Of a stretch of DNA of 64,000 nt, positions 19,408 to 38,904 are shown piece after piece. A program made the position numbers and the translations under genes. Origin of the DNA: Candidatus Moraniibacteriota bacterium (lineage in GTDB: Bacteria > Patescibacteriota > Minisyncoccia > Moranbacterales > UBA1568). Positions within the stretch are counted from its first letter, which is position 1. Each line of letters starts with the position of its first letter. Below the pieces are notes generated by a model. That model worked only from the letters and a program-made list of their open reading frames with translations. It was not told where the DNA came from and ran no database searches. The stretch is from the NCBI GenBank assembly GCA_016699385.1, contig CP064974.1:806791-870790 (forward strand), given 5' to 3'.

Positions 19408-19476
19408 ACATTAAAAAGACGCTTTCAGCATACTGTCTCTGCAACAAATGAGCAAATGAGAGCACGTGAATTATTA

Positions 19477-20751
19477 TCACATTCCCCGATAATTCCGTAT
19501 CCATTTCTCAAAGCGAAACCACAGTGTCTCTTTCTCTCGTGGCAAAACAAAAGCCATCTGTGTTGCCTCGCCAGCAGCATTTTGTGAGAGAAAGTTCTGA
19601 GCACTCACAGAAAGCTGGGTCGATTTCCCATCAACAGCCGGTACACGGAGTTCGAAATACCCCTCACTATTCGTCTTCGTCGAAAAGTCCGCGCCCGCCG
19701 AAACACTCGCACCAACAATCGGAGCACCAAGCTCATCTCGGACAACGCCATAGAATACTCGCGGTGCAAAAAATTCAGCAAGTGTCGCAACTGCCGCGCG
19801 CGGAACACCCTTCTCACTCCAGAGCGCCGTCGAACTCCCTGTCTGCGTCCAGTAATTCATACCAAAAACCCGAGGAACACGCGTAAAACGAAGCATCACT
19901 TCCCGAAGCCACGCCGACTGCTCTTCATCCGTCATGTCTCCATTTATATCTGGAATCGGCGCACCAAACTCTCCCAAAAGAAGCTGTCCACCACTTCTCG
20001 AAATAAAGTCTTGCGCATCCGTTGCAAGAACCTCAGGAGTCTTCACATAGTGATCAACCGTCACCATACCGCCAAGTATTGCTGTTGTATCCTTGTCCAT
20101 GACGAGTCGAGCGATATCGCCATTCATGGAAAAAAGATTCGAAGAGATATTTTTTCCGAGCTTTTCAAAACTTGCTTGCGTCGCCGCATATTCATCAACG
20201 AGAAACTTCCGATATCCCTCGATATCACCATTCAATCGCGGGTCACCCGGACCGCCATTCTCACATTCGGGGCATGCAGAAAAAGCATCGCCATCTTGGA
20301 AGAGCTCGGGATGTCGACGAATAAACGCCTGCGTCTTCGAAATATGCTCTGCGCGAGATATTCCTTGGTATCCAAACCAGCCTTCCCATCCCGAGAAATT
20401 CCCACGAAACCACACGCCGAGATGATACTTCCGCGCCGCGAGAACCCATCGTTTGAGGTATGGAACAAATTCCTCATCATAGGGCGTCGCAATCGCTACA
20501 TGCGTCGCGCCAACCTCAGCAATATCGCGCACCTCTCGGTCGATAACCATATCATAGGAACCATCATGAAGCTTCTCTCGCGCCAAATCTCGCGAGTGCT
20601 TCATAGTGTCAACTGACTGAAATGTCCACCATCTTGCCTCCGGCTTTGGATAGATTGTCACCACAGGTTCACTCGACGCAAAGAAAGCGAGTGCGAAAAA
20701 TCCCGCCACAATCAGAAAGAGAAGAAGAAAGAGAAGAAAGAGTCGCTTCAT
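19477..20751 (-). CDS. membrane-anchored/secreted putative glycoside hydrolase (clan GH-A-like TIM barrel) with a C-terminal CarboxypepD_reg-like beta-sandwich
   Basis: N-terminal hydrophobic anchor (LFLLFLLLFLIVAGFFALAFFA). Central region with a GEFG nucleophile-like motif. C-terminal TNSEGYFEL-type fold. Family assignment is tentative. Confidence 0.5.
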   Translation of the reverse strand: MKRLFLLFLLLFLIVAGFFALAFFASSEPVVTIYPKPEARWWTFQSVDTMKHSRDLAREKLHDGSYDMVIDREVRDIAEVGATHVAIATPYDEEFVPYLKRWVLAARKYHLGVWFRGNFSGWEGWFGYQGISRAEHISKTQAFIRRHPELFQDGDAFSACPECENGGPGDPRLNGDIEGYRKFLVDEYAATQASFEKLGKNISSNLFSMNGDIARLVMDKDTTAILGGMVTVDHYVKTPEVLATDAQDFISRSGGQLLLGEFGAPIPDINGDMTDEEQSAWLREVMLRFTRVPRVFGMNYWTQTGSSTALWSEKGVPRAAVATLAEFFAPRVFYGVVRDELGAPIVGASVSAGADFSTKTNSEGYFELRVPAVDGKSTQLSVSAQNFLSQNAAGEATQMAFVLPREKETLWFRFEKWIRNYRGM

Positions 20752-20790
20752 GTACTCACCATACCATGATGCCGGAGAAGAAAGAAAGCG

Positions 20791-22416
20791 CTAACGAGAG
20801 TCTTCGTTCGCAATAACGCCCGAAAGATACTCCGGCTTCAATTCATACACATCGGCAAAAGGATAGTGATCAACCAATCGGTACCCTTCCAAGAATCCAA
20901 CATTATCTTTGAGAAGTCGCCAGGTCGAATCACTGTCTGAATTACTGCGCATCACAATCCACCGTACCCAATTGTCCGGATCTTTGATAGCGCTTTCATA
21001 ATACGGACCCGTACCTTCGTGAATAAATCGCCCCATGGGAAGTCCTGAGGAAAAAATAACCGAGTCATGAGAAGCAGCGGAAATGAGAATATATCCCTTC
21101 TGTGATCCGGCATTATCATGAAGCCAATTCGCCACCTCCGTCACATTTTTCTGACTCGCCCCCGTGCGTCCATCATCAATAGTCACAGCATCTTGACTCG
21201 AGAATTGGAAAAAAAGCACAAAGAGCAATGTCCCAATTAGTACTGGACGGATAACTCCTCCCCGATGCACAAGATATCCCACAAAAATTGCAATCGACGG
21301 CATCATGAGAATGCCATAACGAACATTGAACCAGGTATTCCCGGAGAGCCCCTGAATGAAAAGTACCGAATGTCCCAAATAGAGAGCGAGAATATTAAAG
21401 AGAAGAGGAGCAAAAAGGGCAAGCGAGGCAAATCGAGCACGCGACGATATATGCCGATCAAAGAAAAGCATACCAGCGCCAATCGCACCAAGAAAAAGTA
21501 TGAAGGTATTTGTATTATACGCAAGCGCATAGAAATACATTTTTGCTGAGAGAAACCAATCTCCCTTCGTAAGAAGCACTCCGGCCGCCGCCAAGTCGTC
21601 TTGCTGCGCATGCGCGGAATAGGGACCAAAGGCGAAGTACAGCGGATCACCGAAGATGAGCAAATTCCACAAAAGCCACAAGAAAACCCCGAATCCGGCA
21701 AGTGTCGCAAAGAGCACAAATGTCCCCTCAGCCTTTCGGTACCCGCCAGACTTCCACGCAGAGACAAACAGCATGACAGACACGAAGAAGAAGAGAAACC
21801 ACCCGTCATATCGAATAAGTGTCGAGAGCATGATAAACAGCGCCGAGAGAAGGAGAAATGGAAGCCTGCTCCGCGTATACCACAAGAGGAGAAAATATGA
21901 TGCCGCCATCGTGGTCCCAAGAAGCGCAAGCTCCGTCATAGCTGTCGACTGAAGATAGAGAATATTCAGATTCGTCGCAAAGACAATGACCCCCACATAC
22001 CGCCCCAGGAGCCCAATGCCCATCTCGCGCAAGAAAAGAAAGAGCATCACGCCTATCGCAATATAGGAAATCATCGACCAGATTGCACCAGCAAGTCCCG
22101 AGTGCCACATGAAGTCATCCCAAATCGTGAGCGCCATGAGGAGATGCGTGAGTGGCAACCACACGCTTCCCAACTGGGCAAAGCCTGGACGAAGCCCCTC
22201 CACAACACGACGCCCGATATCAAGATGCGAGCGCGCATCATTGTAGGCAAGTCCCAAACCATTGGAGTAGTAATGCGCAAATGCCCACACCGAAACCGCC
22301 GAGAGAATACTCACCACAAGCGCCGTCCCGTGTCTATCGAAGAACACTCGAAACGATTCCAGTCGTTCCCGAGACAAAGAGAAAAGAAGAAATGTTTTGT
22401 TCAGAAGATATTTCAT
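20791..22416 (-). CDS. GT-C fold glycosyltransferase (family 39 / ArnT-PMT-like), polytopic membrane protein
   Basis: 541 aa, more than 10 predicted TM helices, an N-terminal extracytoplasmic loop with conserved acidic residues (LAYNDARSHLDIGRR), and a large C-terminal soluble domain. Confidence 0.7.
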   Translation of the reverse strand: MKYLLNKTFLLFSLSRERLESFRVFFDRHGTALVVSILSAVSVWAFAHYYSNGLGLAYNDARSHLDIGRRVVEGLRPGFAQLGSVWLPLTHLLMALTIWDDFMWHSGLAGAIWSMISYIAIGVMLFLFLREMGIGLLGRYVGVIVFATNLNILYLQSTAMTELALLGTTMAASYFLLLWYTRSRLPFLLLSALFIMLSTLIRYDGWFLFFFVSVMLFVSAWKSGGYRKAEGTFVLFATLAGFGVFLWLLWNLLIFGDPLYFAFGPYSAHAQQDDLAAAGVLLTKGDWFLSAKMYFYALAYNTNTFILFLGAIGAGMLFFDRHISSRARFASLALFAPLLFNILALYLGHSVLFIQGLSGNTWFNVRYGILMMPSIAIFVGYLVHRGGVIRPVLIGTLLFVLFFQFSSQDAVTIDDGRTGASQKNVTEVANWLHDNAGSQKGYILISAASHDSVIFSSGLPMGRFIHEGTGPYYESAIKDPDNWVRWIVMRSNSDSDSTWRLLKDNVGFLEGYRLVDHYPFADVYELKPEYLSGVIANEDSR

Positions 22417-24134
22417 AAGCGCTTTTTCTCAAGAAGACTCTCTCGCACAATGCCAACAAAGAATATTCCCGCCCCAAAAAGAAGCACCGAAACAATTCCC
22501 CAATAATACTGATCGGCGCTCATATGTCGGTTTGCCCATACCTGATAGACAAATGACTTCGATCCATTCTCATGCAAATAATCCCAATTTCGTTCGGCAG
22601 TATATTTCTCTACCTTTCCCGAAAGCGCTTCAATCGCGAGCACTTCGTGTTGCGGAGGATTAGCGCTCGACGTAATCGCCCCAAGCGCATTCACAGAAAT
22701 TGAATACGCAAGAAACGCAAAGAACAGTCCAAGAAAGAAGAAATTTTTCCGCCACTCCGTGAGCGCAATACCAACACCAATGCCGAGAATCGCATAACTC
22801 GGAATGAGATAACGCGATCCAAATGCCCACCCACCCCACGGATCCCCCCACATCGAATACAGCAAGAGATTCACCGCCACCGTCGCCACAAAAACATTTG
22901 CCACTCCATATTCCCCTTTCTTTCGAGCCAAAGAAACAAGACCAAAAATACCAAAGAGTATAACCGGCGCATAGAATATCACACCGCGGTCGGGACTCAC
23001 CAAATGTGAGGAGAAACCCCGCAAGAGATCGCGCGTTTGGAAAAATCCGACAGCCGACTTTGCCTCACCATCATCCACGCTATCAATCGATATATCCGTC
23101 AAATCCCGAGACATAGCTTGCCCATCAGAAGAGATCGTCGTCACTGCCGGCAATGTACCCGAGAGCTTTGTCGGTCCCCCATTCACCGTCGCGTTGTACC
23201 ACAAGAATCCCGCCATCGGCACAGCGAGCACAAGGAGCGTCGGGATAAGGATCGGCCGGACAACAAAGTTTAGCTTCTCACCAGCAGATACGGACACAAT
23301 ACGAGAAAAAGCAAATATTCCAAGCGGCGCGAGCAGAAAAAAATTCGGATTGTCTACACTCACAGAGAGCGCTATGCAAAACCATATACCCGCAAGCGAC
23401 CACCACCCATTCGACCGAAGAAGCAAGAAAAGCGAAATCAAGAAAAGAAACACGGACACATGATGCTGATAGAGCGTCGTCCCATAAGCAAATGCCGGCG
23501 TCCCAAAGAGGAAAGCAATCGCCCCCAAAGACGCCGCCGAGGGGCGCGCACCCAAGCGAATGGCAATCGAACGCACGAGGAGCGCATTCAATAGAGCGAA
23601 TACCGCAATAACCGAAAACGCGCCCACCTGCGAAGCACCGAGCCACCTCCCTGCAATATACCCAGGGGCCACCAAGAGTGATACTGTCGGCGCAAAGAGC
23701 GAAGCATATCGTCCATCGGACGTGAGTCCCAAGTCCGGCGTCACAAAGCGCGCAACTGGAAGAGAAAAGAAAAACGAATGATCCTCCATAACCGAGTAAA
23801 GCAATGCAAATCGCCCCCGCTCAGGAGAAAGCTCAAGCGGTCCCTCTTGCTTCCACTGATTAGTATTCAAAACATCCGCCGTCGGATTCCCCGGCAGACC
23901 TCGCAAGGAAATTGCGAGTACAAATACAAGAAAGATGCCAAATACCAACACTCCGCCGAAATGACGAGTGAAATAAAATCGGGACACCTTTTCTAACTTC
24001 ACCCGACTAGACCGAGCGAACACGAGAAATTTTTTCTTCATACCATGTTTCCATTTTTTGAGCGACACTCTCCCAAGAATTATCCCGTCCATGCTTTTCG
24101 TTGTATTCTCGTATATTCCGTATCTCATCAGCAT
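22413..24134 (-). CDS. GT-C fold glycosyltransferase (family 39 / ArnT-like), second copy; start uncertain
   Basis: 573 aa, polytopic, with a C-terminal periplasmic domain. The start may be the internal MKKKFLVF (24041). The 5' end overlaps the stop of the GT4 gene. Confidence 0.65.
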   Translation of the reverse strand: MLMRYGIYENTTKSMDGIILGRVSLKKWKHGMKKKFLVFARSSRVKLEKVSRFYFTRHFGGVLVFGIFLVFVLAISLRGLPGNPTADVLNTNQWKQEGPLELSPERGRFALLYSVMEDHSFFFSLPVARFVTPDLGLTSDGRYASLFAPTVSLLVAPGYIAGRWLGASQVGAFSVIAVFALLNALLVRSIAIRLGARPSAASLGAIAFLFGTPAFAYGTTLYQHHVSVFLFLISLFLLLRSNGWWSLAGIWFCIALSVSVDNPNFFLLAPLGIFAFSRIVSVSAGEKLNFVVRPILIPTLLVLAVPMAGFLWYNATVNGGPTKLSGTLPAVTTISSDGQAMSRDLTDISIDSVDDGEAKSAVGFFQTRDLLRGFSSHLVSPDRGVIFYAPVILFGIFGLVSLARKKGEYGVANVFVATVAVNLLLYSMWGDPWGGWAFGSRYLIPSYAILGIGVGIALTEWRKNFFFLGLFFAFLAYSISVNALGAITSSANPPQHEVLAIEALSGKVEKYTAERNWDYLHENGSKSFVYQVWANRHMSADQYYWGIVSVLLFGAGIFFVGIVRESLLEKKRL

Positions 24135-25194
24135 TTTTGTTCTGCAAAACGAAAGTTATCTTCTCCCCCAAGGAGACACTGTCTTTCGTCGGCAAAACAA
24201 ATCCATTAATTCCATTACGAATAAGGAGGGGGAGCGCCGTGTTATCAGCCACAATACACACGAGCCCCTGACTCAGTCCCTCGTGCACCACATTACAGAA
24301 GCTCTCCCAAATCGCCATATGCACCATCATCTCAGCATGTTTTATACAATAATATTTGTCGTATCCTCGTATCACTCCAGCAAAAATGACGCGCCCCGAA
24401 ACACCAAGTTCTGCAGAGAGAGACTCGAGCTTCTTCCGATAGGCAACATCCGCTTCCGGTCCAACAATAACAAACTTCACATCAGAAGGGATGTTTGGCA
24501 ACGCGCGAATAACCGTCTCATAATTCTTAATCCCGTAAACTCGTCCCACCTGGATAATATACCGCCCCCATGACTGAACGGTTTGCTTCATAGTATCGCT
24601 CACCTCCATATCCACATCGCCAAATGCCTCATCCTCAAGACCATTTGAGATAACAGAAATAATCTCACGCCTAATACCACACTTGATCATCTCTTGTCGC
24701 TCCCATTCAGATACCGCGCGAACACCGTCAACAGATCTATTAATAAGCCAAGCACCAATAGTATAGTGATATGTCCGCTTCAAGAGCACTTGCCATCTCG
24801 GGAATACTGACCATTCCGGATTGAACCCTCCATGCGGCGTAAGCAAAAGCGCATATCGCTTTCTTCCTAACAGCTTTCGAATCAACGTGTACAGCATAAT
24901 AAAAAAATGCGGCACAACATTGAAATTATGCAAACAAACTGCATCTGTCTGCGCCCATCTAATACGCGGGAAATATCCTGCAAATGTGAAAGGGTACCGT
25001 TGAATAGTCATCCCGCGATGAATCTCCCGATTAGGCAGAACATGTTTCTCTGTGAGAGTATCATTTGAAGCGTGCATCGTAACACTCCAATCATTCTTTA
25101 CAAAAACACTGTACGTTTCTACCGTATTCACCTCTATTCCAGCAGCAACCGGATAGCAATATTTCTCTACAACATCGACATGTTTCGATCGCAT
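24007..25194 (-). CDS. glycosyltransferase family 4 (GT-B fold)
   Basis: C-terminal Glycos_transf_1 signature (FVIVGPE...VIFAGVI...WESFCNVVHEGLSQGLVCIVAD). Confidence 0.8.
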   Translation of the reverse strand: MRSKHVDVVEKYCYPVAAGIEVNTVETYSVFVKNDWSVTMHASNDTLTEKHVLPNREIHRGMTIQRYPFTFAGYFPRIRWAQTDAVCLHNFNVVPHFFIMLYTLIRKLLGRKRYALLLTPHGGFNPEWSVFPRWQVLLKRTYHYTIGAWLINRSVDGVRAVSEWERQEMIKCGIRREIISVISNGLEDEAFGDVDMEVSDTMKQTVQSWGRYIIQVGRVYGIKNYETVIRALPNIPSDVKFVIVGPEADVAYRKKLESLSAELGVSGRVIFAGVIRGYDKYYCIKHAEMMVHMAIWESFCNVVHEGLSQGLVCIVADNTALPLLIRNGINGFVLPTKDSVSLGEKITFVLQNKNADEIRNIREYNEKHGRDNSWESVAQKMETWYEEKISRVRSV

Positions 25195-25198
25195 AGGA

Positions 25199-25918
25199 TT
25201 ATTTAACAGCTTTTATTCCAACGATAAGCGGAAAAGTCTCGTCCTGTAATGCAAGCTCCTCAGAATTCATATCCTCAGCTGCCATGCCCATCCAGAATGC
25301 CTCAGTAACTATTTTATTTCCAAGAGCAGAAACTTCGATTCTATTTGCATCAAAAAACTTTTCGAAAACATATCGAGCCGACCGTGGCGTAAATCGCCAC
25401 AGATTAATGGCAAGGTTCCACGCAGGACTCACCGTTGGCATTGTTACAAGCAATGTCCCGCCTGGCTTCAAAATCCTGCGACATTCACTTATAGCAGACT
25501 GGTAGTCATCTATGACATTGAAGGTCTGAGTCACAATAAGGCAATCATATTCATTGTCAGCAATATGACCAGAAAGATTCCTAAGATCTCCACAAATATT
25601 TGCCTTTGCCGTTGGAAATATATCAATGACATCGCTTGTGGTTACTCGCGATCCACCAAATCTGACAGTATACGAATTATCTACAACCTCGAGACACTTT
25701 CCATAAATCGCCTGTTTGTTCTTCTCAAGAAACTGTTCTATAAACAGTCGATCAACGGGCTTCCCGCGATCAAATCCGTACCGCGTGCTGATAGGCTTCC
25801 GTGATCGTGCACGCATATACGATGCCCGACTCCTAAATGCCCGCATTATATGAGCTCGAATCACATTCAGCACCTTCATAACACCATCCATCCAATATGG
25901 AAATCTCATGAAACTCAT
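25199..25918 (-). CDS. SAM-dependent methyltransferase-like protein (class I fold, atypical motif I)
   Basis: Motif II/post-II (DCLIVTQTFNVIDD...ILKPGGTLLVTMP) typical of the Methyltransf_11/23 families. Confidence 0.65.
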   Translation of the reverse strand: MSFMRFPYWMDGVMKVLNVIRAHIMRAFRSRASYMRARSRKPISTRYGFDRGKPVDRLFIEQFLEKNKQAIYGKCLEVVDNSYTVRFGGSRVTTSDVIDIFPTAKANICGDLRNLSGHIADNEYDCLIVTQTFNVIDDYQSAISECRRILKPGGTLLVTMPTVSPAWNLAINLWRFTPRSARYVFEKFFDANRIEVSALGNKIVTEAFWMGMAAEDMNSEELALQDETFPLIVGIKAVK

Positions 25919-26682
25919 ATGTTTTGCTTCTTTGATTTAAGAACGACGCTCTCAAAATCTATATCTTCGTATCGGATCATCATACAAACTATTTCAGCAA
26001 CCTGATACGGCGAAAGAAATTGTTTCGAATTCAAGGAGGCAAACGTATTCACTGTTCCCGGCATCAGACACGACACACGAATACCATACGATTTCAACTC
26101 ACGATTCAGCGCAAAGGAGAACCCTTCGAGTGCATACTTCGTCATCGCATACACTGTTTTACTTGGACCAACATTCGTGTTGTGACTTATTTTCGATCCA
26201 ATCGTAATAATAAATCCAGAAGCAGCATTTTTCATAAGAGGTATTACCCCTTTTGAAAAAAGGAATGCTCCGCGTATATTTGTCGCAACCATACGATCAA
26301 AATCTTCAGCAGAAATTTCCTCGAGTGGTTTTTCTACCATGTTTATCCCTGCATTGTTAACAAGCACATCTACTTTCCCAAATTTCTTCCGCGCAGATAG
26401 TACAATCGACCGCACAGTTTGTTCGTCAGAAACATCACCTTCTGCAAAAACAAATCGCTTTGACTCCACATGAGGGAATGCTTCTTCGAGGGAACGCAAT
26501 CGACGTGAAACAGCAACTACACTCCCACCCTCAGCATAAATCATCTCCGCAATCGCCTTACCAATCCCGCGTCCCGCACCCGTCACAATGACAACCTGAT
26601 CGCAAAGATTCCGTCCAGAAGGTATTCTGACCTTTGGGTAGAGAAATTGCCTACTAATAAATTGTTTGAGAAACGTGATCAT
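25915..26682 (-). CDS. SDR family NAD(P)-dependent oxidoreductase
   Basis: TGAGRGIGKAIA cofactor motif, NNAG, and the catalytic YxxxK region (YAMTKYALEGF). Confidence 0.9.
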   Translation of the reverse strand: MITFLKQFISRQFLYPKVRIPSGRNLCDQVVIVTGAGRGIGKAIAEMIYAEGGSVVAVSRRLRSLEEAFPHVESKRFVFAEGDVSDEQTVRSIVLSARKKFGKVDVLVNNAGINMVEKPLEEISAEDFDRMVATNIRGAFLFSKGVIPLMKNAASGFIITIGSKISHNTNVGPSKTVYAMTKYALEGFSFALNRELKSYGIRVSCLMPGTVNTFASLNSKQFLSPYQVAEIVCMMIRYEDIDFESVVLKSKKQNI

Positions 26683-26697
26683 ATGTGCTCTAGAGTC

Positions 26698-27207
26698 TTA
26701 TTCTTTTTTTACACTAACACCGATAACAACCGGGAAAAAAGGGTCAACATACTCAAGCTCTTCCTGCCGAAGCTGCACGGCAGGAAAACCCTCCAGAAGC
26801 ATTCGCCCAGAAAAAACATTCCCAAAACTCGCTATTTGGACATTCGTAGAACCGAAATGTTTCTCAAAAATGTACTGCGCGGAAGCAACTGTAAAGCCCC
26901 AGAGATGTTCTTCTTGATGCAGTTTTGGTGCAATCGACGAAAGCGTACAAAGAAGCATCCCTCCCCGAGTCAAAATACGCTTTGCCTCTTCAAGAAGCTG
27001 CTCATACTCATACACCCGGTTCAACAACATTTCTAGCACAACACAGTCAACAGACGCATCAGTATACGCTTTCATAGTAGAGCGCGCTTCAATACGAAGC
27101 GCCGATTCAGAAAATTCCCCGATATTTTTCTCAAGGAAAATCCTTGAATAATACGAATCTACCGCTTCTTCTTCACCGCGCACGGTTACACTTTGTTTAT
27201 GCTTCAT
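26698..27207 (-). CDS. truncated methyltransferase-like paralog of 25199..25918 (N-terminal portion missing)
   Basis: 169 aa. Colinear with the C-terminal two thirds of the neighbouring MTase (DCVVLEMLL...ILTRGGMLLCTL...PVVIGVSVKK) but lacks the N-terminal region. Confidence 0.5.
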   Translation of the reverse strand: MKHKQSVTVRGEEEAVDSYYSRIFLEKNIGEFSESALRIEARSTMKAYTDASVDCVVLEMLLNRVYEYEQLLEEAKRILTRGGMLLCTLSSIAPKLHQEEHLWGFTVASAQYIFEKHFGSTNVQIASFGNVFSGRMLLEGFPAVQLRQEELEYVDPFFPVVIGVSVKKE

Positions 27208-27223
27208 AATATTTTACGATACG

Positions 27224-28081
27224 TCATAAAAATCTTCCGATAATCTTCTTTGCTATTTTTCTGAAAAGAATTGCCGCATCAGTATGAATCGCAAAAAATT
27301 CGTAGTGCGAATGGGTCCGATCAACGCCAACTCTCGGAACAACAAACGGGTCAGTTTCCGGAGAAAGAAACCCATCATCCATAGAAAGAGCGAGATCATA
27401 TCCTGCCTCACCAATCAATCGACGCGCTACCTTTGTATACCGCCCTCTTGGATAGGCAAAGTACCGAACAGGAAAACCAAATCTCTCCTCAAGAACCCTT
27501 TTTGCCCCAGCCGTTTCCTGCTGTATTTGCGCTTCCGACATTTCCCAGAAATCCCCATGTGTTGCACTATGACAACCAATTTCCCATCCCGACACATAAA
27601 GCTCTTGGATTTCCGAGGTCGAAAGAAACTCCCGACTCGTCCCCAATTCTCCGCCATCAACATGTTCCGCATCAGAAAGCACGAAAAGTGTTGGAGAAAT
27701 ACCCTTCTCAAGAAGGAAGTCTTTCACCTCAAGAATATCCCGGTATCCATCGTCAAACGTGATAACAAATGAAGGCTGTTCAATCGAACGAAGACCTCGC
27801 AAGAACTTCCACGCCTCAGATAATGTTAGTGGACGATATTGTGTAAGAAGAGATTCAATCTGTTTTCGAAACACATCTAAATCAATACTAAATCGCCAGT
27901 TATCGCGTGCGATACTGTGATACGAAAATATAACAACCTTGTGAGCTCGACGAGGAAGAAAAAAATCAACACATCGAAGGCACGCGTATACCAATCGACG
28001 CACGAGACAAAGCACATTATTGATACGAGAGGAAATCATACTATAAGAAATATTATCGGACATTCTTCGAACTCGAAGCAA
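27224..28081 (-). CDS. polysaccharide deacetylase (CE4, NodB homology domain)
   Basis: FVITFDDGYRD motif and His-containing motifs (CHSATHGD). Confidence 0.85.
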   Translation of the reverse strand: MLRVRRMSDNISYSMISSRINNVLCLVRRLVYACLRCVDFFLPRRAHKVVIFSYHSIARDNWRFSIDLDVFRKQIESLLTQYRPLTLSEAWKFLRGLRSIEQPSFVITFDDGYRDILEVKDFLLEKGISPTLFVLSDAEHVDGGELGTSREFLSTSEIQELYVSGWEIGCHSATHGDFWEMSEAQIQQETAGAKRVLEERFGFPVRYFAYPRGRYTKVARRLIGEAGYDLALSMDDGFLSPETDPFVVPRVGVDRTHSHYEFFAIHTDAAILFRKIAKKIIGRFL

Positions 28082-31900: not shown

Positions 31901-33763
31901 GATAAGCATGAAAGCAATCTTCCCTCCCACGACAAATTGAAAGAGGAGTGCGTGTATGCCGTTGTCACGGAAGAATTTCCCCGGTTGGCGCATATGGACC
32001 AGATATGTCTGCATATACCCCTTGATCCATCGCGACCGCTGGCGAATCCAATTCCCCACCTTGCTATTTGCTTCTTCGAGCGTCACCGAGTCTATGATGG
32101 CGGTCCGATGTCCGCGCGTAAAAATCCGCGCACCCAAATCGCAATCTTCCGTCACATTGAATGGATCCCACCCCTCGAGCGCGAGAAGATCTTCGCGGCG
32201 GAAGTGATTGCTCGTACCGCCTAGAGGAATAGACGTTGCAACGGATTGTAGTCCTGGGAGCGTCACATCAAACCACAGCGAATATTCCGCCGTGAAGAGC
32301 CGCGTCAAGATATTTTGATTGGCATTGAAATAGTTGAGCTTTGCCTGCAAACACCACACATCACGCGAGAGCGTCTGGAAACCGAGATACGCTTTCTTGA
32401 GTTGGAGCGGATCGGGAATATCCTCTGCATCATAGATCACGACATACTCGCCGCGCGTCATTGAGAGACCGTAATTGCACGCTTTTGGTTTCGTCTTCGG
32501 CTCGGAATGCGGCACCACGACTATGCGAACAAATGAGGGGAGATTCATCTCCGTTGCCGCATCTATAGTTTCCTGGTCGTTTTCCTCGAGAAGGAGGAGC
32601 GCCTCGAGTTTTTCCTTTGGCCAATCAATCTTCCCAATTGCATCGAGAAATCCCGGGAGAATATGCGCCTCCCGATAGAGCGGACACAGTATGGAATACA
32701 AAGGAAGCTGCTCATCACGAAGCGTGGCAAGCTCTTCGTCCGAAAAAGAAACTTCCGGTGGCTTCTTGAGACTGCGCACCACAAAGAAGGCGTTGAAGAG
32801 CACGTCGAGGAAATAGATACTCGTCAGTATCGCCGTCACCGCAATGAGCGTTGATATCGGACGAAGCAATACGCCCACTACAAATGCAAGCGCAATGCTA
32901 ATCACAACTATTTTCTGCCACGATACAAACGTATGGAGTGCGGATGAATGATGCGCGAGCGTCGAGTGCGTGACGAATCGCTTTCGATTGTGAGCAACTC
33001 CCGCTCCGAGCATACCTTGAACCTTCCCAGCACCAACCGTTTCCGGATGAATACGAAGTGGCGCTCTCTCGCGAAAGCGCAATTTTACTGCATTCCATCC
33101 AATTTCGCGGATTGCCTTCCAGAAAACAATTTTCGATTCCCCCGACGTCCGCTCAGCAAAGGCAATGGTCTGTCCGCCGATTTCATAGCCATAGTTCCGC
33201 GCCGTAAGCAGAAATTCCAAGTCGAATGTCCACGGATCGGGAGTAATCTTCACCTCATGGGCAACGCGCGCCCGAAACACCTTCATGCCCGACTGCACAT
33301 CAACATCGAGACCGTGCAAAAATCGAGAGAAAACGAGTGCAAAACCGCGACTCAAAACTCTCCGGAGAAGACTCGTCTCGCGCTCAATTCGATTGGCAAC
33401 GACAATATCAAACCCGTGATGCAACTTTGCGCACATATCCGGCAGCGCCTCAGGAGGATACTGCAAATCAGCATCAATCATGGCAATCGTCTCGAAGTGT
33501 GCATAATCGAATCCTTCAAGTATCGAGTATGCTTTTCCGCGATTGCCTTTTTTGAGATGAAAAAAAACAGGATACGTCTTTGAAAGTTTTTCAACTTCTG
33601 TCCGTGTCCCGTCTGTCGAATGATCATCGATAAAAATCACCTCGTATTCGATATCCGCCGCACGAAAAGATACGTCAACACGGCGGACCAAGTCCGCCAC
33701 ATTGCCCTCCTCGTTCAATGTCGGCACCAAAACCGAGATTCGCTCCCGTAGCATGAACTTCAC
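28946..33763 (-). CDS. 1605-aa multidomain glycan-assembly protein: GT2 (GtrB/DPM1-like) - TM - processive GT2 (QxxRW) - polytopic MOP/Wzx-like membrane domain - GT4
   Basis: aa 1-240: LVPTLNEEGNV...FIDDHSTDGT...IDADLQYPP (polyprenol-phosphate GT2). aa ~350-700: DAED...QRSRWIKGYMQT (synthase-type GT2). aa ~760-1180: more than 12 hydrophobic helices. aa ~1200-1605: GT4 (KRVLIFNW...EGWGIVAIEANACGTPVIAS). A single uninterrupted ORF. Confidence 0.85.
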   Translation of the reverse strand: MKFMLRERISVLVPTLNEEGNVADLVRRVDVSFRAADIEYEVIFIDDHSTDGTRTEVEKLSKTYPVFFHLKKGNRGKAYSILEGFDYAHFETIAMIDADLQYPPEALPDMCAKLHHGFDIVVANRIERETSLLRRVLSRGFALVFSRFLHGLDVDVQSGMKVFRARVAHEVKITPDPWTFDLEFLLTARNYGYEIGGQTIAFAERTSGESKIVFWKAIREIGWNAVKLRFRERAPLRIHPETVGAGKVQGMLGAGVAHNRKRFVTHSTLAHHSSALHTFVSWQKIVVISIALAFVVGVLLRPISTLIAVTAILTSIYFLDVLFNAFFVVRSLKKPPEVSFSDEELATLRDEQLPLYSILCPLYREAHILPGFLDAIGKIDWPKEKLEALLLLEENDQETIDAATEMNLPSFVRIVVVPHSEPKTKPKACNYGLSMTRGEYVVIYDAEDIPDPLQLKKAYLGFQTLSRDVWCLQAKLNYFNANQNILTRLFTAEYSLWFDVTLPGLQSVATSIPLGGTSNHFRREDLLALEGWDPFNVTEDCDLGARIFTRGHRTAIIDSVTLEEANSKVGNWIRQRSRWIKGYMQTYLVHMRQPGKFFRDNGIHALLFQFVVGGKIAFMLINPLLWLQTILYFAFRPVVGPAIEALYPPVVFYMAVVSLIFGNFLAMYYYMIGCAKREKWELMKWVFLIPFYWLLVSVAAVMAAYQLLVKPHYWEKTTHGLHLLKRKKKTLDGASEKKVEKVLGPSIRVSPENFFATSLQRGTRGVLRYFSNTFSWISGQSRSIGALLRKFSSREYTRPILDFAFSAEGLFVIATFLSNVLNFAFNAFLGRMLSFETLGMIALLNTLWYLALVFISPFSTTINREVSYLSARNGEKEALVFWASIMRIGLIASVFVTALWLFAVPALSRFFHVGDVLLLFSFAPLLAGGLLAFGNFGYLQGALRFRAAAILSLVEAGSKLIIALGFVFSGLHEYVYLSIPVSVILAAFSSFFLIPGAGKSLLNAPQSRTFPLEFFSAAILVTVSTAMFTTVDVLLAKHFMSERGAGEYALLSLVGKVIFFLGTMPNMFMVTFVGRNRGLGKGTKNIFWIIYGLSACVVAGSVVLLGFFDGALSMFLFGGKVSAVLQFLPMYTIAIAFFTLSTIIVTYHLARKQYIFVFAALLMSGAEAIGIILFHSSLDHIVDSVFLSSLCGWILLSALHIAEPSFRFFERAVRDFLDAFRGRFPEETAPLQGKRVLIFNWRDTKHAYGGGAEVYVEEIAKRWVADGNSVTMFCGNDGHQSRHETRHGIRIVRRGGFYLVYVWAVIYYFARFRGKFDVIIDCENGIPFFTPLYVKEPVVCLLHHVHQEVFFQFLPKPLAFLASFLEKTMMPLVYSKAPFVTVSQSSQHEMELLGIGKAGISVVHPGVHLDDFVPVEQKSDRPTLLYLGRLKAYKSVGVLLHAFKMVVAERPESKLIIAGDGDDEMNLKRLAFETLRLGTDHVEFLGRVSEEEKKKLLQESWMLVNPSMMEGWGIVAIEANACGTPVIASNVPGLRDSVKNPHSGFLVPYGDADAFAEKILLLIRDRELRLNMNISAREWAERFDWNLSSAQLLEVVSVRDENRPL

Positions 33764-33936
33764 TCGTGGACAACCGTTTCAACAACAAAGAAATTCCCGA
33801 AAGACATCACCATCAGCTTTTGTCTTTTCTGTATTTCCAGATGAAACGCGACGCAGCGTGCCCGAATATATGGATGAAATCTGATGATATACTTTCGGCT
33901 CCACAAGTGTCAATATTGACAAAACAACAAAAAACT

Positions 33937-34590
33937 TCATCTAATCATGCCTGTATCTTCATGCTGCCACTTCCATGCCTCAGGAAAGATACTCTGCGCT
34001 ATACGAAAGATGCTATATGTGATAAAAAATGCCGAGAACACATCGATAGAATAGTGCAAATGTCCCACGAGCACTCCAATCGCAAAGACAATCGACATCG
34101 AGAGAAACACGACGCGCACAAATACGATGTCCCAAAAAAGAAGTGCGATCAGAAAAGGCAACCCCGTATGCCCCGAGAAGAAAAGGTCGTTGCCGGAAAG
34201 AAGTCGAGCAAAAAGCACCCCATCATCGAGCACTACCTTGTCCGGCGACGGACCAAGGTGTGTGAGAACAATAAACATCGACCGAATAAGAATAAACAAC
34301 GCGACGCTTTTCAAAACAAACGGGATGCTCTTTGGCAAAGCAAGACACGTTCCCAAGAGAAATAGCCCCAAGAAAAGCGCACCTACACCAAGAAGACCAT
34401 CGACATCGAGCACGGGAATATTATCGAGGATAATATCCGTCACCGAATTGCTCGCCCAAATATCCGCATACGCGCTCGCGAAATGATTCGCAACAATACT
34501 CGTTGCAAGAAAAAACACCCCCTCGAGGACACTCCTCACAAATGCCGAATTCGTCCACAATTCTCGATGCTTCTGCAAAAAACTTCGCAT
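33937..34590 (-). CDS. PAP2-superfamily membrane phosphatase (lipid/polyprenyl-phosphate phosphatase-like)
   Basis: 217 aa, polytopic. PSGH-type motif (FFSGHTG) and an SR...H...D-type motif (VGHLHYSIDV). Confidence 0.6.
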   Translation of the reverse strand: MRSFLQKHRELWTNSAFVRSVLEGVFFLATSIVANHFASAYADIWASNSVTDIILDNIPVLDVDGLLGVGALFLGLFLLGTCLALPKSIPFVLKSVALFILIRSMFIVLTHLGPSPDKVVLDDGVLFARLLSGNDLFFSGHTGLPFLIALLFWDIVFVRVVFLSMSIVFAIGVLVGHLHYSIDVFSAFFITYSIFRIAQSIFPEAWKWQHEDTGMIR

Positions 34591-34601
34591 AGATAGATAC
34601 T

Positions 34602-36539
34602 TTATCGGATATCGCGGAAACTTTTTGTAAACGGTTTTTTGAAAAAAAGTATCCAGAGATGGTTCGAAACGTAAAGAAAAGCAGCAGAGAAAACGCCCTC
34701 GCGCTTCAGACGGCGACCGGATGTACGCATCGGCAAAGCGAAGGTGAAACGAACGAATCCTTCTTTCTGGATGCGTCGCGCAATGTCCGTATCTTCTCCA
34801 AAGAAAGCAATATCAACATCAAATCCACCGATACTCTCGAGTGCAGACCGCTTCAACACAAAATTTCCCCCTTGAATCATAGCTCCCGAACGAAGCACAT
34901 GTTGATTGAAGAAATGAAAAAGAAAACCGAATAAATAGTAGACCCGAACAAAGAAATTCGTAAATGCCGGAATATCGTAGTAAATATACGGCCCGCTCAA
35001 GGCAACTAAATCATTCCGCCTCGAAAACTCCCGAAAAACTCTGTCGATCCAACCTCTTGGTACAAGGGAATCCGCATCGATATTGGCAATGAGATCGCCA
35101 TGCGAAGCAAGAAATCCTGCCTGACGCGCCCGAGGCAAACCCTTCTGAGGTTCATCCACCACAATGACATGAGGAAATCCGAGCGCAATTTCTCGCGTCC
35201 GATCGGTACTCGCATTATTCACAACAATCACTTCGATATCACGACCACTCTCCTCTATTCTCTTTACAATCGACTGGAGCGTCTTCCCAATAAACTTCTC
35301 TTCATTGTACGCAGGGATGACGACGCTAAGCGCCGGCTTCCCCGCTTCTGAGGGTTCTCCGAGAACTCGTTGGAATATTTTCTCCCACTCACCCACGACG
35401 GCAGACACGGAAAATTCGCGCACAAAACTCATTCCGTTTTCCCCGAGCCGCTTCACCTCTTCCGGATGAGAAAAAAGAAAGAGTATCCTCTCCGCAAGAC
35501 CAGACACATCGCCCGGTGGAACGACGAACCCCGCATTCTTCGGCACATATTCCGGTAGTCCATAGGCATCAGCAGCAATCACTGGTAGCCCCGAAGCAAA
35601 GGCGTGCATCATACTCAAGCACTGCGTCTCTGCCGTGCTCATTACTGCGAAAATATCGGAAGCCCGATAAATCTCAGCGAACTCTTTTTGTTTCAGATAA
35701 CCGAGAAAATGCACATTTTGTTCCAAGTCAAGTTCCCGTGCCACCTGTCGAAGAGATGCTTCAGCACTGCCATGCCCGGTAATCGCAAACGAAATATCCG
35801 GAATGGTTTTCTTTGCAATTGCCATCGCGCGAAGCACAACGTCAATCCCCTTTTCCTGCGCGATTCGCCCGGTATACAGAAGTGTATGCTGAGACAATCC
35901 AAATTTCTTTTTCAGTTGATTTTTTTCTTCAAAAGAAGAGCTTGGGGAAAAATCCGACAATTCAAGAGGATTTGAGAGTACGTGTGACTTCGCATGGAAG
36001 CCAAATGTCTCCATCTCAGAGAGGAGTGCACGAGACGGCGCACTCACAAAAACGCAGTGACGATAATACCAATTCACATATTTAAGGCTTAGCCTTTTCA
36101 CCCACCGAAACGAAAGTGGGCTATATTTCAAAAACTCGGTAATCGGCGTGTGATTGGTGCCAATGAGCGGCTTTTTCAAGAGTTTCGAAACAAAAAGCGC
36201 CTCCAGCCCCGCACCAAAAACATCTTGTGTATATATGATATCCGGATCAAATTCTTTGACAGAACGATAGCTCAAGAGACATGGAAAAACGACGCGACTT
36301 TGTCGTGTTGGTGATTGCGGAAAAGGAAACGAAAACAATCGAACGATTTCAATATTTTTATTGAGTTCCAACTCGTGAAATGGCAATTTCGAAATAGCAA
36401 AATCTCGCCGAGAATACCGTGGCACATAAAAACATACTCGATGTCCCTTCGCTGCCAATCCCTTCGCCAGCGTAATGACGGAATCGGATATTCCGCTCAT
36501 CTCCGGATAGAAGTTATCCAAAAATATCGCTATTTTCAT
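34602..36539 (-). CDS. bifunctional glycosyltransferase: N-terminal GT4 (GT-B) fused to C-terminal GT2 (GT-A)
   Basis: N-terminal MKIAIFLDNFYPEMSGISD...GHGSAEAS...VPPGDVSGL (GT4). C-terminal LSVVIPAYNEEKFI...VVNNASTDRT...IDADSL (GT2). The ORF opens at 36614, but the likely start is MKIAIFL at 36539. Confidence 0.8.
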   Translation of the reverse strand: MKIAIFLDNFYPEMSGISDSVITLAKGLAAKGHRVCFYVPRYSRRDFAISKLPFHELELNKNIEIVRLFSFPFPQSPTRQSRVVFPCLLSYRSVKEFDPDIIYTQDVFGAGLEALFVSKLLKKPLIGTNHTPITEFLKYSPLSFRWVKRLSLKYVNWYYRHCVFVSAPSRALLSEMETFGFHAKSHVLSNPLELSDFSPSSSFEEKNQLKKKFGLSQHTLLYTGRIAQEKGIDVVLRAMAIAKKTIPDISFAITGHGSAEASLRQVARELDLEQNVHFLGYLKQKEFAEIYRASDIFAVMSTAETQCLSMMHAFASGLPVIAADAYGLPEYVPKNAGFVVPPGDVSGLAERILFLFSHPEEVKRLGENGMSFVREFSVSAVVGEWEKIFQRVLGEPSEAGKPALSVVIPAYNEEKFIGKTLQSIVKRIEESGRDIEVIVVNNASTDRTREIALGFPHVIVVDEPQKGLPRARQAGFLASHGDLIANIDADSLVPRGWIDRVFREFSRRNDLVALSGPYIYYDIPAFTNFFVRVYYLFGFLFHFFNQHVLRSGAMIQGGNFVLKRSALESIGGFDVDIAFFGEDTDIARRIQKEGFVRFTFALPMRTSGRRLKREGVFSAAFLYVSNHLWILFFKKPFTKSFRDIR

Positions 36540-36549
36540 AGGAATCGTA

Positions 36550-38904
36550 TCAAGAAGACGTTGCTTGCTCTGCACGAGAAAACCACCGAGCAAGGGCATA
36601 TTGAAGTCCTCCATATGCTACCATAACCAGGAAAAAGCGCACGAAAAGGGGAGGGGATACCGGCGGAATATCTATTTCAAAAAAACGCAAGACAAATGGA
36701 ATTTGGAGCATTACCGGAAGCAGCACGACTTCGAACACGACCAACATTCCAAGATTTCTCACTTCCGAAGACGCGAGTTTCCCTCGAAAGACTCGCGGAA
36801 CAAACAAAAAGAAAATGAATCCGAGAATAAGCGAAGCGAGCACAATCAAAAAATTCGACGGTGCGGATTTTAGCTGGTCACTGCTCATCGCAAAAATAAA
36901 TGCGAGTGCGAGAGTCTGCAGAAACGACGAAGAAACAACAAACGGCAGAATTTTCCGAAGAAAGTTCCCTGCATGTGCCGCAACCGCCTTCCCTGCCGGA
37001 CGAATCGTCCAATAGGAAATGAGAATGCTTGGGAAACCAATGGTGAAATAATTCACCAGCGTCATATTGAGCGGCGTAAGTGGAAAGGCATAGCCCAAGA
37101 CACTCACCCATATAAAGAAGAAAAATCCCGTAAACGAGAAGCTGAAGAAAATGCTCGCAAAAATCTCGGCATTCTTGATAATACTGTCTGCCAATTCTAC
37201 ACCCCCCGGAAGCGCCGTGAAGCTATTGTTCGTCAGCACAATCGAGGCAACCTGCCGCGTCGCGGGCGCCCCTTCAAACATCGCGATACCGAGGTCTGAC
37301 TTCTTGAGTGCGAGCGCATCATTGGCACCGTCCCCCACCATCGCCGTGAACCCATCGGTCTTCAACGCTTCGACGATTTTTTCTTTCTGCTCGGGAAAAA
37401 TCCGCGCAAAAATCGTTGTGCCCTGCACGCGCTCATTAAATTCCTCTTCTGTCCACTGCGCAATATCCGCGCCCGTCACCGCCAGTTCGACATGATCAAC
37501 ACCTGCCGACCGAGCAATCGCGCGCACGGTGTCCACATTGTCGCCCGAGAGTATGCGAATACGAACGCCTCGTTTTTGGAAAAATTCGACAGCATCTCGG
37601 ATACCCGGACGGAGCTCACTCGAAAGCACAAAGACACCGAGCAATGAGAGTTTCGTCTGTGCGATATCTTTCGGAATGTTGTTACCCTTAGCTGTCGCAA
37701 GACAGAGAAGTCGCTTCCCGTCACGTGCCTCGCGCAAGAGCAAATCCTGAAGCCACGACTGTTCCGTGACAGAAAGAAGCTGTGGCATAACCACCTCCGC
37801 CGCACCAACAAGGAGTGTCGTCACCTCTCCCGAAACTTCCTTAAATGAGACCGCGCCAAATCGACGCCACGAAGAAAACGGGAGTGCATCGAGCACTCCT
37901 CCACTATCCCCGTGAGGTGCGATAAACTTCCGTACAGCGAGAGCCGTTTGCGACGTATCATGCGTCCCATCGAGATACACCATCATGTGTTCAAAAACCC
38001 GCGCTTCCGATACGCTCTCCGGCGACAAAAATCGCTCCGTTGTAAGACCGTTCTCACACAGTGTCCCCGTCTTATCCATGCAAAGATTTTTGATTCGTCC
38101 AAGCTTCTCGGTCGCATTCACCTCTTGCAAGAGCACATGTCGCTGAAACAAATGTGCCGCTCCATACGCGAAGAGAAGCGTCATGCCAAATGCGAGTCCC
38201 TGTGCCACGATAACACTCGCAAGCGCACCCACGTGCTTCACAATGCTCACATTCGACTCGTGTGTCAAAACTCCACGCGCCACCGCAAAGAGAACGACGA
38301 CGACGAGCACGTACCCGGAATACCGAATAACCGTACTCACCGATTTCTGAATTGGACTCTCGGCAACTGCGGAACGCTGTATCCCCTCGGTCATGCGCGC
38401 GATACGGCTCTCAGCAAAGACTGTCTCCGCGCGCATCAAACCAGAGCCGGAAGTGATAATACTCCCCGCAAGCACGCGCTCCCCTGCGCCGCGCGGCAAA
38501 GACGCCGACTCGCCCGTAATCAAACCCTCATTCAATTCGAGAGACTCCGATGATACCAGCGTGCCATCGCAGGGCACCTGATCACCTATGCCAAGCTGAA
38601 GCGTGTCTCCTTTGCGAATATCTTCCGTCATCACAGATTCCTCCTGTCCGTCTCGTATGCGCTTCACGTGAGGCGCCGTCAAAAGCTGGAGCTTTTCGAG
38701 CGCGCTCCATGCACGGATATCCTGTGCAAGACCAAGCGCCATATTCACCACCGTCACGAGCCCCAAGAACACTCCTGCCTGCCGATCACCAAAGACAAAA
38801 AGCAACCCTACGACAGTCAAAATGACGCCATTCGTCAGGAGAAACACGTTCCGCGAAACGATATACCACAAATCACGGAGTTTTTTCGCGCGTGGTGACA
38901 CCAT
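36550..38904 (-). CDS. cation-transporting P-type ATPase (E1-E2, P2/P3-like)
   Basis: TGES actuator motif, DKTGTLCENGL phosphorylation site, GDGANDALALKKSDLGIAM hinge, and 8-10 TM helices. Confidence 0.9.
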   Translation of the reverse strand: MVSPRAKKLRDLWYIVSRNVFLLTNGVILTVVGLLFVFGDRQAGVFLGLVTVVNMALGLAQDIRAWSALEKLQLLTAPHVKRIRDGQEESVMTEDIRKGDTLQLGIGDQVPCDGTLVSSESLELNEGLITGESASLPRGAGERVLAGSIITSGSGLMRAETVFAESRIARMTEGIQRSAVAESPIQKSVSTVIRYSGYVLVVVVLFAVARGVLTHESNVSIVKHVGALASVIVAQGLAFGMTLLFAYGAAHLFQRHVLLQEVNATEKLGRIKNLCMDKTGTLCENGLTTERFLSPESVSEARVFEHMMVYLDGTHDTSQTALAVRKFIAPHGDSGGVLDALPFSSWRRFGAVSFKEVSGEVTTLLVGAAEVVMPQLLSVTEQSWLQDLLLREARDGKRLLCLATAKGNNIPKDIAQTKLSLLGVFVLSSELRPGIRDAVEFFQKRGVRIRILSGDNVDTVRAIARSAGVDHVELAVTGADIAQWTEEEFNERVQGTTIFARIFPEQKEKIVEALKTDGFTAMVGDGANDALALKKSDLGIAMFEGAPATRQVASIVLTNNSFTALPGGVELADSIIKNAEIFASIFFSFSFTGFFFFIWVSVLGYAFPLTPLNMTLVNYFTIGFPSILISYWTIRPAGKAVAAHAGNFLRKILPFVVSSSFLQTLALAFIFAMSSDQLKSAPSNFLIVLASLILGFIFFLFVPRVFRGKLASSEVRNLGMLVVFEVVLLPVMLQIPFVLRFFEIDIPPVSPPLFVRFFLVMVAYGGLQYALARWFSRAEQATSS

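Follow-up and report, generated by a model that had tools for sequence, protein, structure and literature searches.

Patescibacteria, which account for a large part of the diversity of bacteria, live on other cells to which they attach, and very little is known of their surface chemistry. A long run of glycosylation genes in the genome of Candidatus Moraniibacteriota bacterium raises the question of whether such genes form one pathway, and of what that pathway would make. The run lies in a stretch of 64,000 nucleotides (assembly GCA_016699385.1, contig CP064974.1, positions 806,791 to 870,790 of the forward strand; hereafter the window, with positions counted from its first letter), in which an earlier note had marked positions 19477-36614 as a self-contained locus for a surface glycopolymer or for protein O-glycosylation. 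The genes are numbered here g1 to g12 by position (Table 1), and GT stands for glycosyltransferase. Our reading, to which we give a probability of about 0.55, is that the locus would encode a pathway of several components, acting partly outside the cytoplasm, for a glycopolymer of the cell surface, with a frame that is fixed among Patescibacteria and a swappable cassette that would set the fine structure.

Gene order and conservation

Positions 17975-40098 hold an uninterrupted series of 16 minus-strand open reading frames (ORFs) in the ORF list of the window, and the span 19477-36614 within it carries 12 substantial genes, every one on the minus strand. The strand and coordinates given in the earlier note are therefore correct, whereas its count of thirteen consecutive genes is not; the thirteenth may be a 53-aa ORF at 33779-33940, which was accepted by the gene caller in a near-identical contig. 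Since 37 of the 52 long ORFs of the window (71%) are on the minus strand, co-directionality by itself is weak evidence, and it is the synteny kept across genomes that argues against a chance array. The giant gene g10 was found in at least 579 species-representative genomes, and among the matches listed all those informatively named are Candidate Phyla Radiation (CPR) lineages. In a sample of 51 species-representative loci whose sequence extends 10 kb past the giant gene on its downstream side, the giant gene, g3 and g2 occur on one strand and in that order in 44, confirming the proposed linkage in related genomes; g1 comes after g2 in 35 of these 44, and the order holds even where the giant protein is no more than 42-45% identical. 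The cassette fills the interval from the giant gene to g3, which measures 1.2-7.6 kb (median 4.2 kb). On four annotated contigs from divergent Patescibacteria the giant gene is followed by differing sugar-modifying genes, then by a g3-like, a g2-like and usually a g1-like gene, the four cassettes carrying Rml genes (locus L001), APH and PIG-L, carbohydrate esterase family 4 (CE4) and GT2 genes, and an epimerase with an aminotransferase.

On these comparisons the pattern of the locus is a conserved frame with an exchangeable specificity cassette, and the evolutionarily conserved unit, as judged from gene order, is 19477-33763. The proposed 17-kb unit thus holds for this part and not for the PAP2 gene (g11) and the GT4-GT2 gene (g12), which were tried as frame members and rejected, being found upstream of the giant gene in 0 and 2 of 46 loci, respectively; by the same evidence they are lineage-specific neighbours outside the conserved module. 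Across species, the median identity to the window is 66% for module b of the giant protein (modules a to d are described below), 57% for g2, 52% for module d, 49% for g1, 44% for module a, 43% for g3 and 33% for the flippase module c, which makes module b the most conserved part of the locus and module c the least. The identity of module b correlates with that of g2 (rho 0.65) and of g1 (rho 0.56).

A full hidden Markov model search with the g2 profile returned 2585 clusters at 50% identity, and the divergent members of the family include three types of fusion: a b-type GT2 followed by a g2-like GT-C, the same arrangement with a C-terminal glycoside hydrolase (GH) of family GH113, and a g2-like GT-C followed by GH5. 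These fusions come from Chloroflexota, Thermosporothrix hazakensis among them (WP_111321778.1, annotated only as glycosyltransferase). The GT2-GT-C fusions resemble the locus in that module b and their GT2 domain share 49% identity over 418 aa, that a g2-family GT-C follows this domain, and that a GH can stand at the position of g1; they differ from it in that the polypeptide carries neither a DPMS-like nor a flippase nor a GT4 module. In one protein from Patescibacteria, g3 is fused to g2. The fusions tie module b to g2, place a hydrolase at the g1 position and tie g3 to g2.

The spacing of consecutive genes from g10 to g1 ranges between -35 and +39 nt; g10 and g9 overlap by 4 nt, and so do g3 and g2. 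The sole sizeable intergenic gap, of 173 nt, is immediately upstream of the giant gene and contains the best sigma-70-like promoter match of the region, and a strong symmetric hairpin at the other end is a candidate for the end of the minus-strand transcript; the promoter and terminator totals in the region show no excess over shuffled controls. A Logan contig agrees with the window at 99.986% identity across 21.6 kb (2 mismatches and one gap).

Many metagenome-assembled genome records with the locus (L009-L087) are titled 'uncultured Gammaproteobacteria', 'Bdellovibrionales' or 'Pseudomonadales', with L034 under Bathyarchaeia and L072 under Verrucomicrobiia; these non-CPR titles are probably placeholder or mis-binned labels. 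Two loci that carry the cluster, L064 and L075, bear the label Saccharibacteria.

Table 1. Features of the locus and its flanks, in order of position in the window (TM, transmembrane; SDR, short-chain dehydrogenase/reductase)
Feature	Position	Strand	Basis or remark
Strong symmetric hairpin AAAAACCGC...GCGGTTTTT	17922..17945	.	after DUF7768 gene
g1, signal-anchored extracytoplasmic protein, ~300-aa conserved N-terminal domain and C-terminal CarboxypepD_reg beta-sandwich	19477..20751	-	Pfam PF13620, residues 335-399
g2, GT-C-fold membrane glycosyltransferase, small C-terminal extracytoplasmic alpha/beta domain	20791..22416	-	predicted structure
g3, second GT-C-fold membrane glycosyltransferase, separate sequence family	22413..24041	-	predicted structure
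g4, cytoplasmic GT4 (GT-B)	24007..25194	-	Pfam Glycos_transf_1 and Glyco_transf_4
g5, class I methyltransferase-like	25199..25918	-	Methyltransf_11 E 3.4e-9
g6, classical SDR	25915..26682	-	adh_short E 2.9e-50
g7, short g5 paralog, without ~65 N-terminal residues	26698..27207	-	Methyltransf_11, C-terminal part
g8, CE4 polysaccharide/oligosaccharide de-N-acetylase, likely start 28039	27224..28081	-	Polysacc_deac_1 E 3e-20
g9, soluble GT2 (GT-A)	28053..28949	-	Glycos_transf_2 E 1.7e-18
g10, giant multi-GT protein, 1605 aa	28946-33763	-	Pfam/NCBIfam
g10 module d, residues 1236-1605, PimA-like GT4 (GT-B)	28949..30058	-	Glycos_transf_1 E 9.6e-42; PDB PimA E 1e-20
g10 module c, residues ~796-1230, ~12-TM MOP/Wzx-like flippase domain	30074..31378	-	hhalign; Pfam of aligned members
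g10 module b, residues ~280-745, membrane-embedded GT2	31529..32926	-	Pfam Glyco_tranf_2_3 (PF13641), Glyco_trans_2_3 (PF13632)
g10 module a, residues 1-240, polyprenyl-phosphate sugar synthase-like GT2 (DPMS/ArnC/GtrB class)	33044..33763	-	PDB sequence matches
Best sigma-70-like promoter match of the region, TTGACA-18-TATCAT	33884..33913	-	11/12 matches; consensus match only; in 173-nt gap upstream of g10
g11, PAP2_C membrane protein	33937..34590	-	PF14360 E 3.6e-8
g12, soluble GT4+GT2 fusion	34602..36614	-	Pfam
P-type ATPase	36550-38904	-	directly upstream of locus; ORF end overlaps longest g12 ORF by 65 nt
Coiled-coil protein with C-terminal M10 (matrixin-like) metallopeptidase motif	38908-40098	-	upstream of P-type ATPase gene

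A giant protein of four modules

Most of the labels given to single genes in the earlier note agree with Pfam and NCBIfam (GT4, methyltransferase, SDR, methyltransferase paralog, CE4, GT2, giant multi-GT protein, PAP2_C and GT4+GT2). The giant protein is indeed a multi-GT fusion, and contains in addition a Wzx-like flippase and a synthase-type GT2 module that had been overlooked. As had been suggested, its N-terminal module a is GtrB-like: in a PDB sequence search it is closest to DPMS (5mlz, E 1.7e-21), ArnC (E 3e-18) and GtrB (5ekp, E 6e-14), and because its scores against the NCBIfam models ArnC, PgfS and AglJ are all below the cut-offs, the assignment is one of class and not of orthology. 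Enzymes of the DPMS/ArnC/GtrB class load a sugar onto polyprenyl phosphate. Module a is fused to the remainder of the giant protein in 61 of 79 loci. It was not found fused at the N-terminus in the other 18 (among them L056, L057, L059, L060, L064, L066, L070 and L075); for about a dozen of these the match to the giant protein begins at about residue 220-270, and a few loci (L052, L007, L080) have a weak module-a-like match elsewhere.

Module b carries the motifs DAED (at 445), TED (at 538) and QRSRW (at 575), flanked by TM segments at 285-323 and 603-704, a set that, as a sequence pattern, is the signature of synthase-type family-2 enzymes. Its scores against the NCBIfam models for CelA, PgaC and XrtG-associated GTs are far below the cut-offs, and its best solved relative, the archaeal PcManGT, is matched at only E 6.6e-6. 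For module c, the homology to MOP/Wzx flippases is convincing at the level of profiles: hhalign matched it to a Patescibacterial PF01943 protein with a probability of 99.7% (E 2e-25, 384 columns), and of its 38 aligned members, one of them this same stand-alone PF01943 protein, 13 match PF01943 (E<=0.01), 6 MatE and 3 Polysacc_synt_3. The module c of the window itself has no Pfam match even at E<=10. When its profile was searched against the PDB, only orexin receptors were matched, and these were rejected as artefacts of TM composition.

Two GT-C proteins and the signal-anchored g1

Neither g2 nor g3 has a Pfam match even at E<=10 or a PDB match in sequence or profile searches, and NCBIfam gave only a weak, sub-threshold match, to g3; as these searches were uninformative, structures were predicted. 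The g3 ORF reaches 24134, with M32 as the probable start. All named homologues of the two proteins (1971 for g2 and 1342 for g3, aligned at E<=1e-3) are Patescibacterial, and g2 is strongly conserved within this group. The predicted structure of g2 has a predicted local distance difference test score (pLDDT) of 75.7 and a predicted template modelling score (pTM) of 0.73, and that of g3 a pLDDT of 88.9 and a pTM of 0.90; compared with known structures, the g3 model scores 20.5 with ALG12, 19.9 with ArnT and 16.0 with AftB. According to these models, both are polytopic GT-C-fold membrane proteins, and a reassignment to unrelated families is not indicated. In the homologue alignments, the first extracytoplasmic loop after TM1 contains invariant D60 and E73 in g2, with D66 kept at >=90%, and invariant E86 in g3, with E70 kept at >=90%; such acidic residues may have a catalytic role.

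Of the earlier label of two GT39/ArnT-like GT-C enzymes, the fold holds, whereas the proteins of the window are not members of PF13231 or PF02366. Only divergent members of the g2 family (P0250, P0255, P0329 and P0345, at 27-31 bits) pass the PF13231 PMT_2 cut-off of 26.1, and g2 is therefore a remote PMT_2/ArnT-like relative and not a scored member; no link of g3 to PMT_2 (PF13231/PF02366) was found. The notion that g2 and g3 are recent paralogs was dropped at a profile-profile probability of 6%, and the WWDYG motif that is the signature of STT3/AglB/PglB is present in neither sequence. The two proteins thus represent two GT-C sequence families that have no Pfam model.

The protein g1, which had been called a secreted glycosidase, is signal-anchored by one N-terminal TM segment and ends in CarboxypepD_reg, in agreement with the first half of that label; the glycosidase half is not confirmed, as the N-terminal domain has no significant Pfam or PDB family match. 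Its invariant residues fall in GEFG, DHY, YW and ECEN motifs, the first three of which hint at a GH and are suggestive only. Among 29 homologues, Glyco_hydro_cc (PF11790) was matched in 3 (best E 0.0038) and GH10 in 1, which is weak GH support. Comparisons by hhalign with a DUF4015 protein encoded nearby, with a fusion that bears GH113 and with one that bears GH5 gave nothing significant, and a PDB profile search matched the CarboxypepD_reg part only, so that a glycosidase is unproven; the N-terminal domain is possibly clan GH-A-like.

In locus L007 a 1207-aa PKD/PA14 surface protein is encoded between g2 and the g1-like gene, and a stand-alone Wzx-type PF01943 gene (18906-20204) and a sortase gene (18246-18683) are found a few kb downstream of the frame.

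The variable cassette

Between the giant gene and g3, the window carries g4-g9, whose GC content at third codon positions (GC3) is 0.36-0.44, in a comparison with 0.46-0.56 for the frame and flanks; a GC comparison of this kind was part of the earlier proposal. The methyltransferase pair g5 and g7, the CE4 gene g8 and the GT4 gene g4 co-occur in 12 loci, distant ones among them, and g6 is found in 4 of the 12 loci bearing a similar cassette. Genes for methyl and deacetyl decoration are present, as had been noted, and belong to the swappable cassette and not to the fixed machinery. The protein g4 matches the NCBIfam model Agl16 over its full length at 147 bits, below the cut-off. As for the methyltransferase paralog that had been called truncated, g7 is the shorter of the two (29% identity to g5 by BLASTP, E 6e-27), and since distant genomes have kept it alongside g5, it is no fragment in decay. 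Matches of g8 to PgaB, HfsH and NodB in NCBIfam are weak, and since no hydrophobic segment and no clear signal peptide were detected, g8 is probably cytoplasmic.

A proposed pathway and its alternatives

In the pathway that we propose, module a would load a sugar onto polyprenyl monophosphate at the cytoplasmic face, the GT4 module d together with the cassette enzymes (g9, g4, g8, g5, g7 and g6) would extend and modify the lipid-linked glycan, and the Wzx-like module c would flip it across the membrane, where the GT-C g3, the more variable of the two, would move it onto an acceptor outside. In parallel, module b would make an invariant backbone or acceptor, working with g2 and the secreted g1. 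That g3 is the GT-C transferring the flipped glycan is probable; the lipid carrier, the order of steps, the roles of the GT-Cs, the sugars and the acceptor (wall polymer, protein or lipid) are what we infer. A monophosphate carrier is proposed because no priming phosphoglycosyltransferase of the WbaP/WecA type was found by Pfam among the genes of 17975-40098. As neither Pfam nor NCBIfam gave a match to Bac_transf, MraY-like proteins, Wzy or Wzz among the same genes, a Wzx/Wzy-dependent pathway, which would need a primer, Wzy and Wzz, was rejected. The core of the earlier proposal, a linked glycan pathway with GT-C enzymes and a GtrB-like donor synthase, is supported by the folds, the class of module a and the linkage of the genes across genomes; the term 'self-contained' goes further than this evidence, as no acceptor was identified and no source of nucleotide sugars or of the lipid carrier.

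Several observations weigh against this pathway. The g2, g3 and flippase sequences of the window miss all Pfam thresholds, and their assignments are made by predicted structures and profile comparisons; residues 55-105 of the g2 model, the first external loop and the expected catalytic site, have a pLDDT below 50. A hydrolase role for g1 comes without significant matches, and a GT2 of the QxxRW type, such as module b, is not necessarily processive. In 7 of the 51 loci no complete g3-g2 pair is present at a distance of up to 10 kb from the giant gene. The division into two sub-modules leans on fusions found in a different phylum and on correlations of identity that phylogeny produces too.

Since fold similarity does not reveal the acceptor, protein glycosylation and a lipoglycan are to be weighed as well. 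In the former, a glycan built on a monophosphate carrier would be flipped and transferred by GT-Cs to surface proteins such as S-layer or pilus subunits, as in the Agl system of Haloferax, streptococcal Pgf or actinobacterial O-mannosylation by Ppm1/Pmt. The PMT_2 matches of divergent g2-family members point this way, as do the similarities of g4 to Agl16 and of module a to AglJ and PgfS, all of them below the cut-offs, and the list of parts agrees with that of Agl, in which a glycan primed on dolichyl phosphate meets the Wzx-like flippases AglR/Agl15 and the GT-Cs AglB/AglS (PMC3892788). However, WWDYG is missing from both GT-Cs, and module b would be left unexplained even though no other part is as well conserved and, in Chloroflexota, it is found fused with g2-like GT-C and GH domains; we consider general protein glycosylation unlikely, though well worth keeping in view. 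A membrane-anchored lipoglycan similar to lipomannan, which would follow the mycobacterial logic of PimA/PimB, PimE/Mpt and Ppm1, appears less likely still. In it, GT4 enzymes would glycosylate a membrane lipid in the cytoplasm, the product would be flipped, and the GT-Cs would extend it on the outside with the polyprenyl-phosphate sugar of module a. In its favour, module d has PimA and PimB' as its best solved relatives, the nearest matches to the GT4 part of g12 are monoglucosyl-diacylglycerol and lipoteichoic acid-anchor glycolipid synthases, and a PMM/PGM-like mutase is encoded 3 kb away, whereas similarity to PimA is generic among GT4 enzymes, g12 is not conserved with the frame, the locus has no genes of inositol or lipid-anchor chemistry, and the cassette and the synthase module suit a wall polymer at least equally.

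Finally, there may be no single pathway at all, but unrelated glycosylation genes adjoining each other in a compact, strand-biased genome, a view consistent with the strand bias of the window, with the continuation of the run into TrpRS, P-type ATPase and peptidase genes, and with the lineage-specific PAP2 and g12. We consider it very improbable for the locus as a whole: the order of the giant gene, g3 and g2 in other genomes, the b-g2 and g3-g2 fusions and the 4-nt overlaps largely refute it for 19477-33763, whereas for 33937-36614 it is possible.

Comparison with known systems

The closest parallel to the proposed glycopolymer pathway is with Lactococcus, whose Wps system comprises WpsA/B, WpsC-F, the Wzx-family WpsG and the GT-Cs WpsI and WpsJ, works on C55-P, and builds and attaches the variable side chains (PSP) of a rhamnose-rich wall polysaccharide (PMC9574508). 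Similar to Wps of Lactococcus lactis, the locus has a GtrB-type primer, which here would act on polyprenyl monophosphate, variable cytoplasmic GTs, a Wzx-like flippase and two GT-Cs, with a conserved frame around a variable region. Unlike in Wps, the primer GT2, flippase, GT4 and synthase-type GT2 are a single polypeptide of 1605 aa, the GT-C proteins are of unclassified sequence families, the host is Patescibacterial, and neither a GacJ/WpsB-type activator nor a Wzz-like WpsH was identified. No RmlABCD, rhamnosyltransferase, ABC exporter or GacJ/WpsB gene was found by Pfam in the window locus (Rml genes occur only in some cassettes, as in L001), so that any backbone would come from the synthase-type GT2. 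As the rhamnan backbone genes and the activator are absent from it, the locus is better described as working like Wps and Gac than as a member of either.

The Gac system of Streptococcus pyogenes (GacI/J, the Wzx-family flippase GacK and the GT-C GacL; PMC9574508) and Wps extend the three-component logic of Gtr (PMC11127046). In common with Gac, Gtr, Arn and CsbB-YfhO, a polyprenyl-phosphate sugar synthase, a flippase and a GT-C would here act on a glycan outside the membrane, whereas those systems add single sugars from separate genes, and the locus has two GT-Cs, additional cytoplasmic GTs and a fusion. Most Gac/Gtr-type systems use a small GtrA-type flippase, and GacK shows that a Wzx-family protein can be the flippase; by Pfam, no small GtrA-family flippase is encoded in 17975-40098, with the Wzx-like module in its place. 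Haloferax volcanii Agl (AglJ/G/I/E, AglD, AglR, AglB and AglS) assembles a glycan on monophosphate polyprenol, starting with a DPMS-like GT2 (PMC3892788), and shares with the proposed pathway this mode of assembly, a Wzx-like flippase, two GT-Cs, and methyltransferase and sugar-modifying genes within the cluster. Here, in contrast to Agl, the WWDYG of AglB/STT3 is lacking, the host is bacterial, a synthase-type GT2 is present and a protein target is not established. Finally, module b shares with BcsA/BcsZ, PgaC/PgaB and the hyaluronan/chitin synthases the D, DxD-like, TED and QxxRW motifs and flanking TM helices, and the locus shares with such systems a CE4 deacetylase and a possibly hydrolase-like secreted partner encoded nearby (g1). 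It differs from synthase-dependent systems in that it has no PilZ/c-di-GMP module, and the coupling to a GT-C and flippase is not theirs.

Novelty and significance

All the components belong to known kinds, and there is precedent for the logic. A literature search on Patescibacteria or CPR in combination with GT-C, Wzx, flippase, envelope or protein glycosylation, which was incomplete in coverage, gave no description of the locus; the fusion of four modules, the two GT-C families that are unclassified, a synthase-type GT2 coupled with a GT-C and the CPR-wide arrangement of frame and cassette appear to be undescribed in the literature searched. The analysis defines two GT-C families without a Pfam model and an enzyme in which a lipid-sugar synthase is combined with a synthase-type GT2, a flippase and a GT4, and the locus gives a concrete, phylum-wide genetic handle on the surface glycan. 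Its frame genes could be used as markers or be targeted for knock-out, diversity of a serotype-like kind is to be predicted from the variable cassette, and the named Chloroflexota relative, Thermosporothrix hazakensis, makes the pairing of GT2 and GT-C experimentally testable. It is a tentative thought, and on balance a doubtful one, that the main glycopolymer of the Patescibacterial envelope is made by the frame (the giant protein, the two GT-Cs and g1) and stands in functionally for teichoic acid or lipopolysaccharide, with serotype-like diversity from the cassette governing attachment to host cells and susceptibility to phages. A bolder variant would make g2 a transferase, unrelated to STT3, by which proteins receive monophosphate-linked glycans; such an enzyme was inferred in Haloferax and never identified (PMC3892788).

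Neighbouring genes

The membrane protein g11, for which the earlier note had the label PAP2 phosphatase, carries SGHT and HYSIDV motifs, which we take to be like the D3/D4 motifs of sphingomyelin-synthase-type phospho-headgroup transferases rather than those of a simple phosphatase. For the GT4 part of g12 the nearest NCBIfam model is monoglucosyl-diacylglycerol synthase (NF049988, 116 bits, below the cut-off). Of the phosphomannomutase said to be nearby, the mutase is confirmed and its specificity is not, as it is PMM/PGM-like (428 bits) or archaeal-GlmM-like (355 bits) and below both cut-offs. A P-type ATPase gene also occurs near the cluster in L001.

Downstream of the series of minus-strand ORFs, ispH (LytB; 16648-17616, plus strand) is split into two frames (ORFs 16647-17051 and 16987-17616), whereas an intact 322-aa ispH is present on the 99.986%-identical contig. 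The single gap between the two contigs would be the ispH indel, which is either a true frameshift or a mistake of the assembly. On each side of ispH lies a small DUF7768 gene (16234-16650, plus strand; 17975-18373, minus strand), the two being paralogs that point in opposite directions. On the other side of the locus, a plus-strand gene at 40760-42136 encodes a NiFe hydrogenase large subunit that is nearest to the alpha subunits of sulfhydrogenase ShyA/HydA (group 3b-like).

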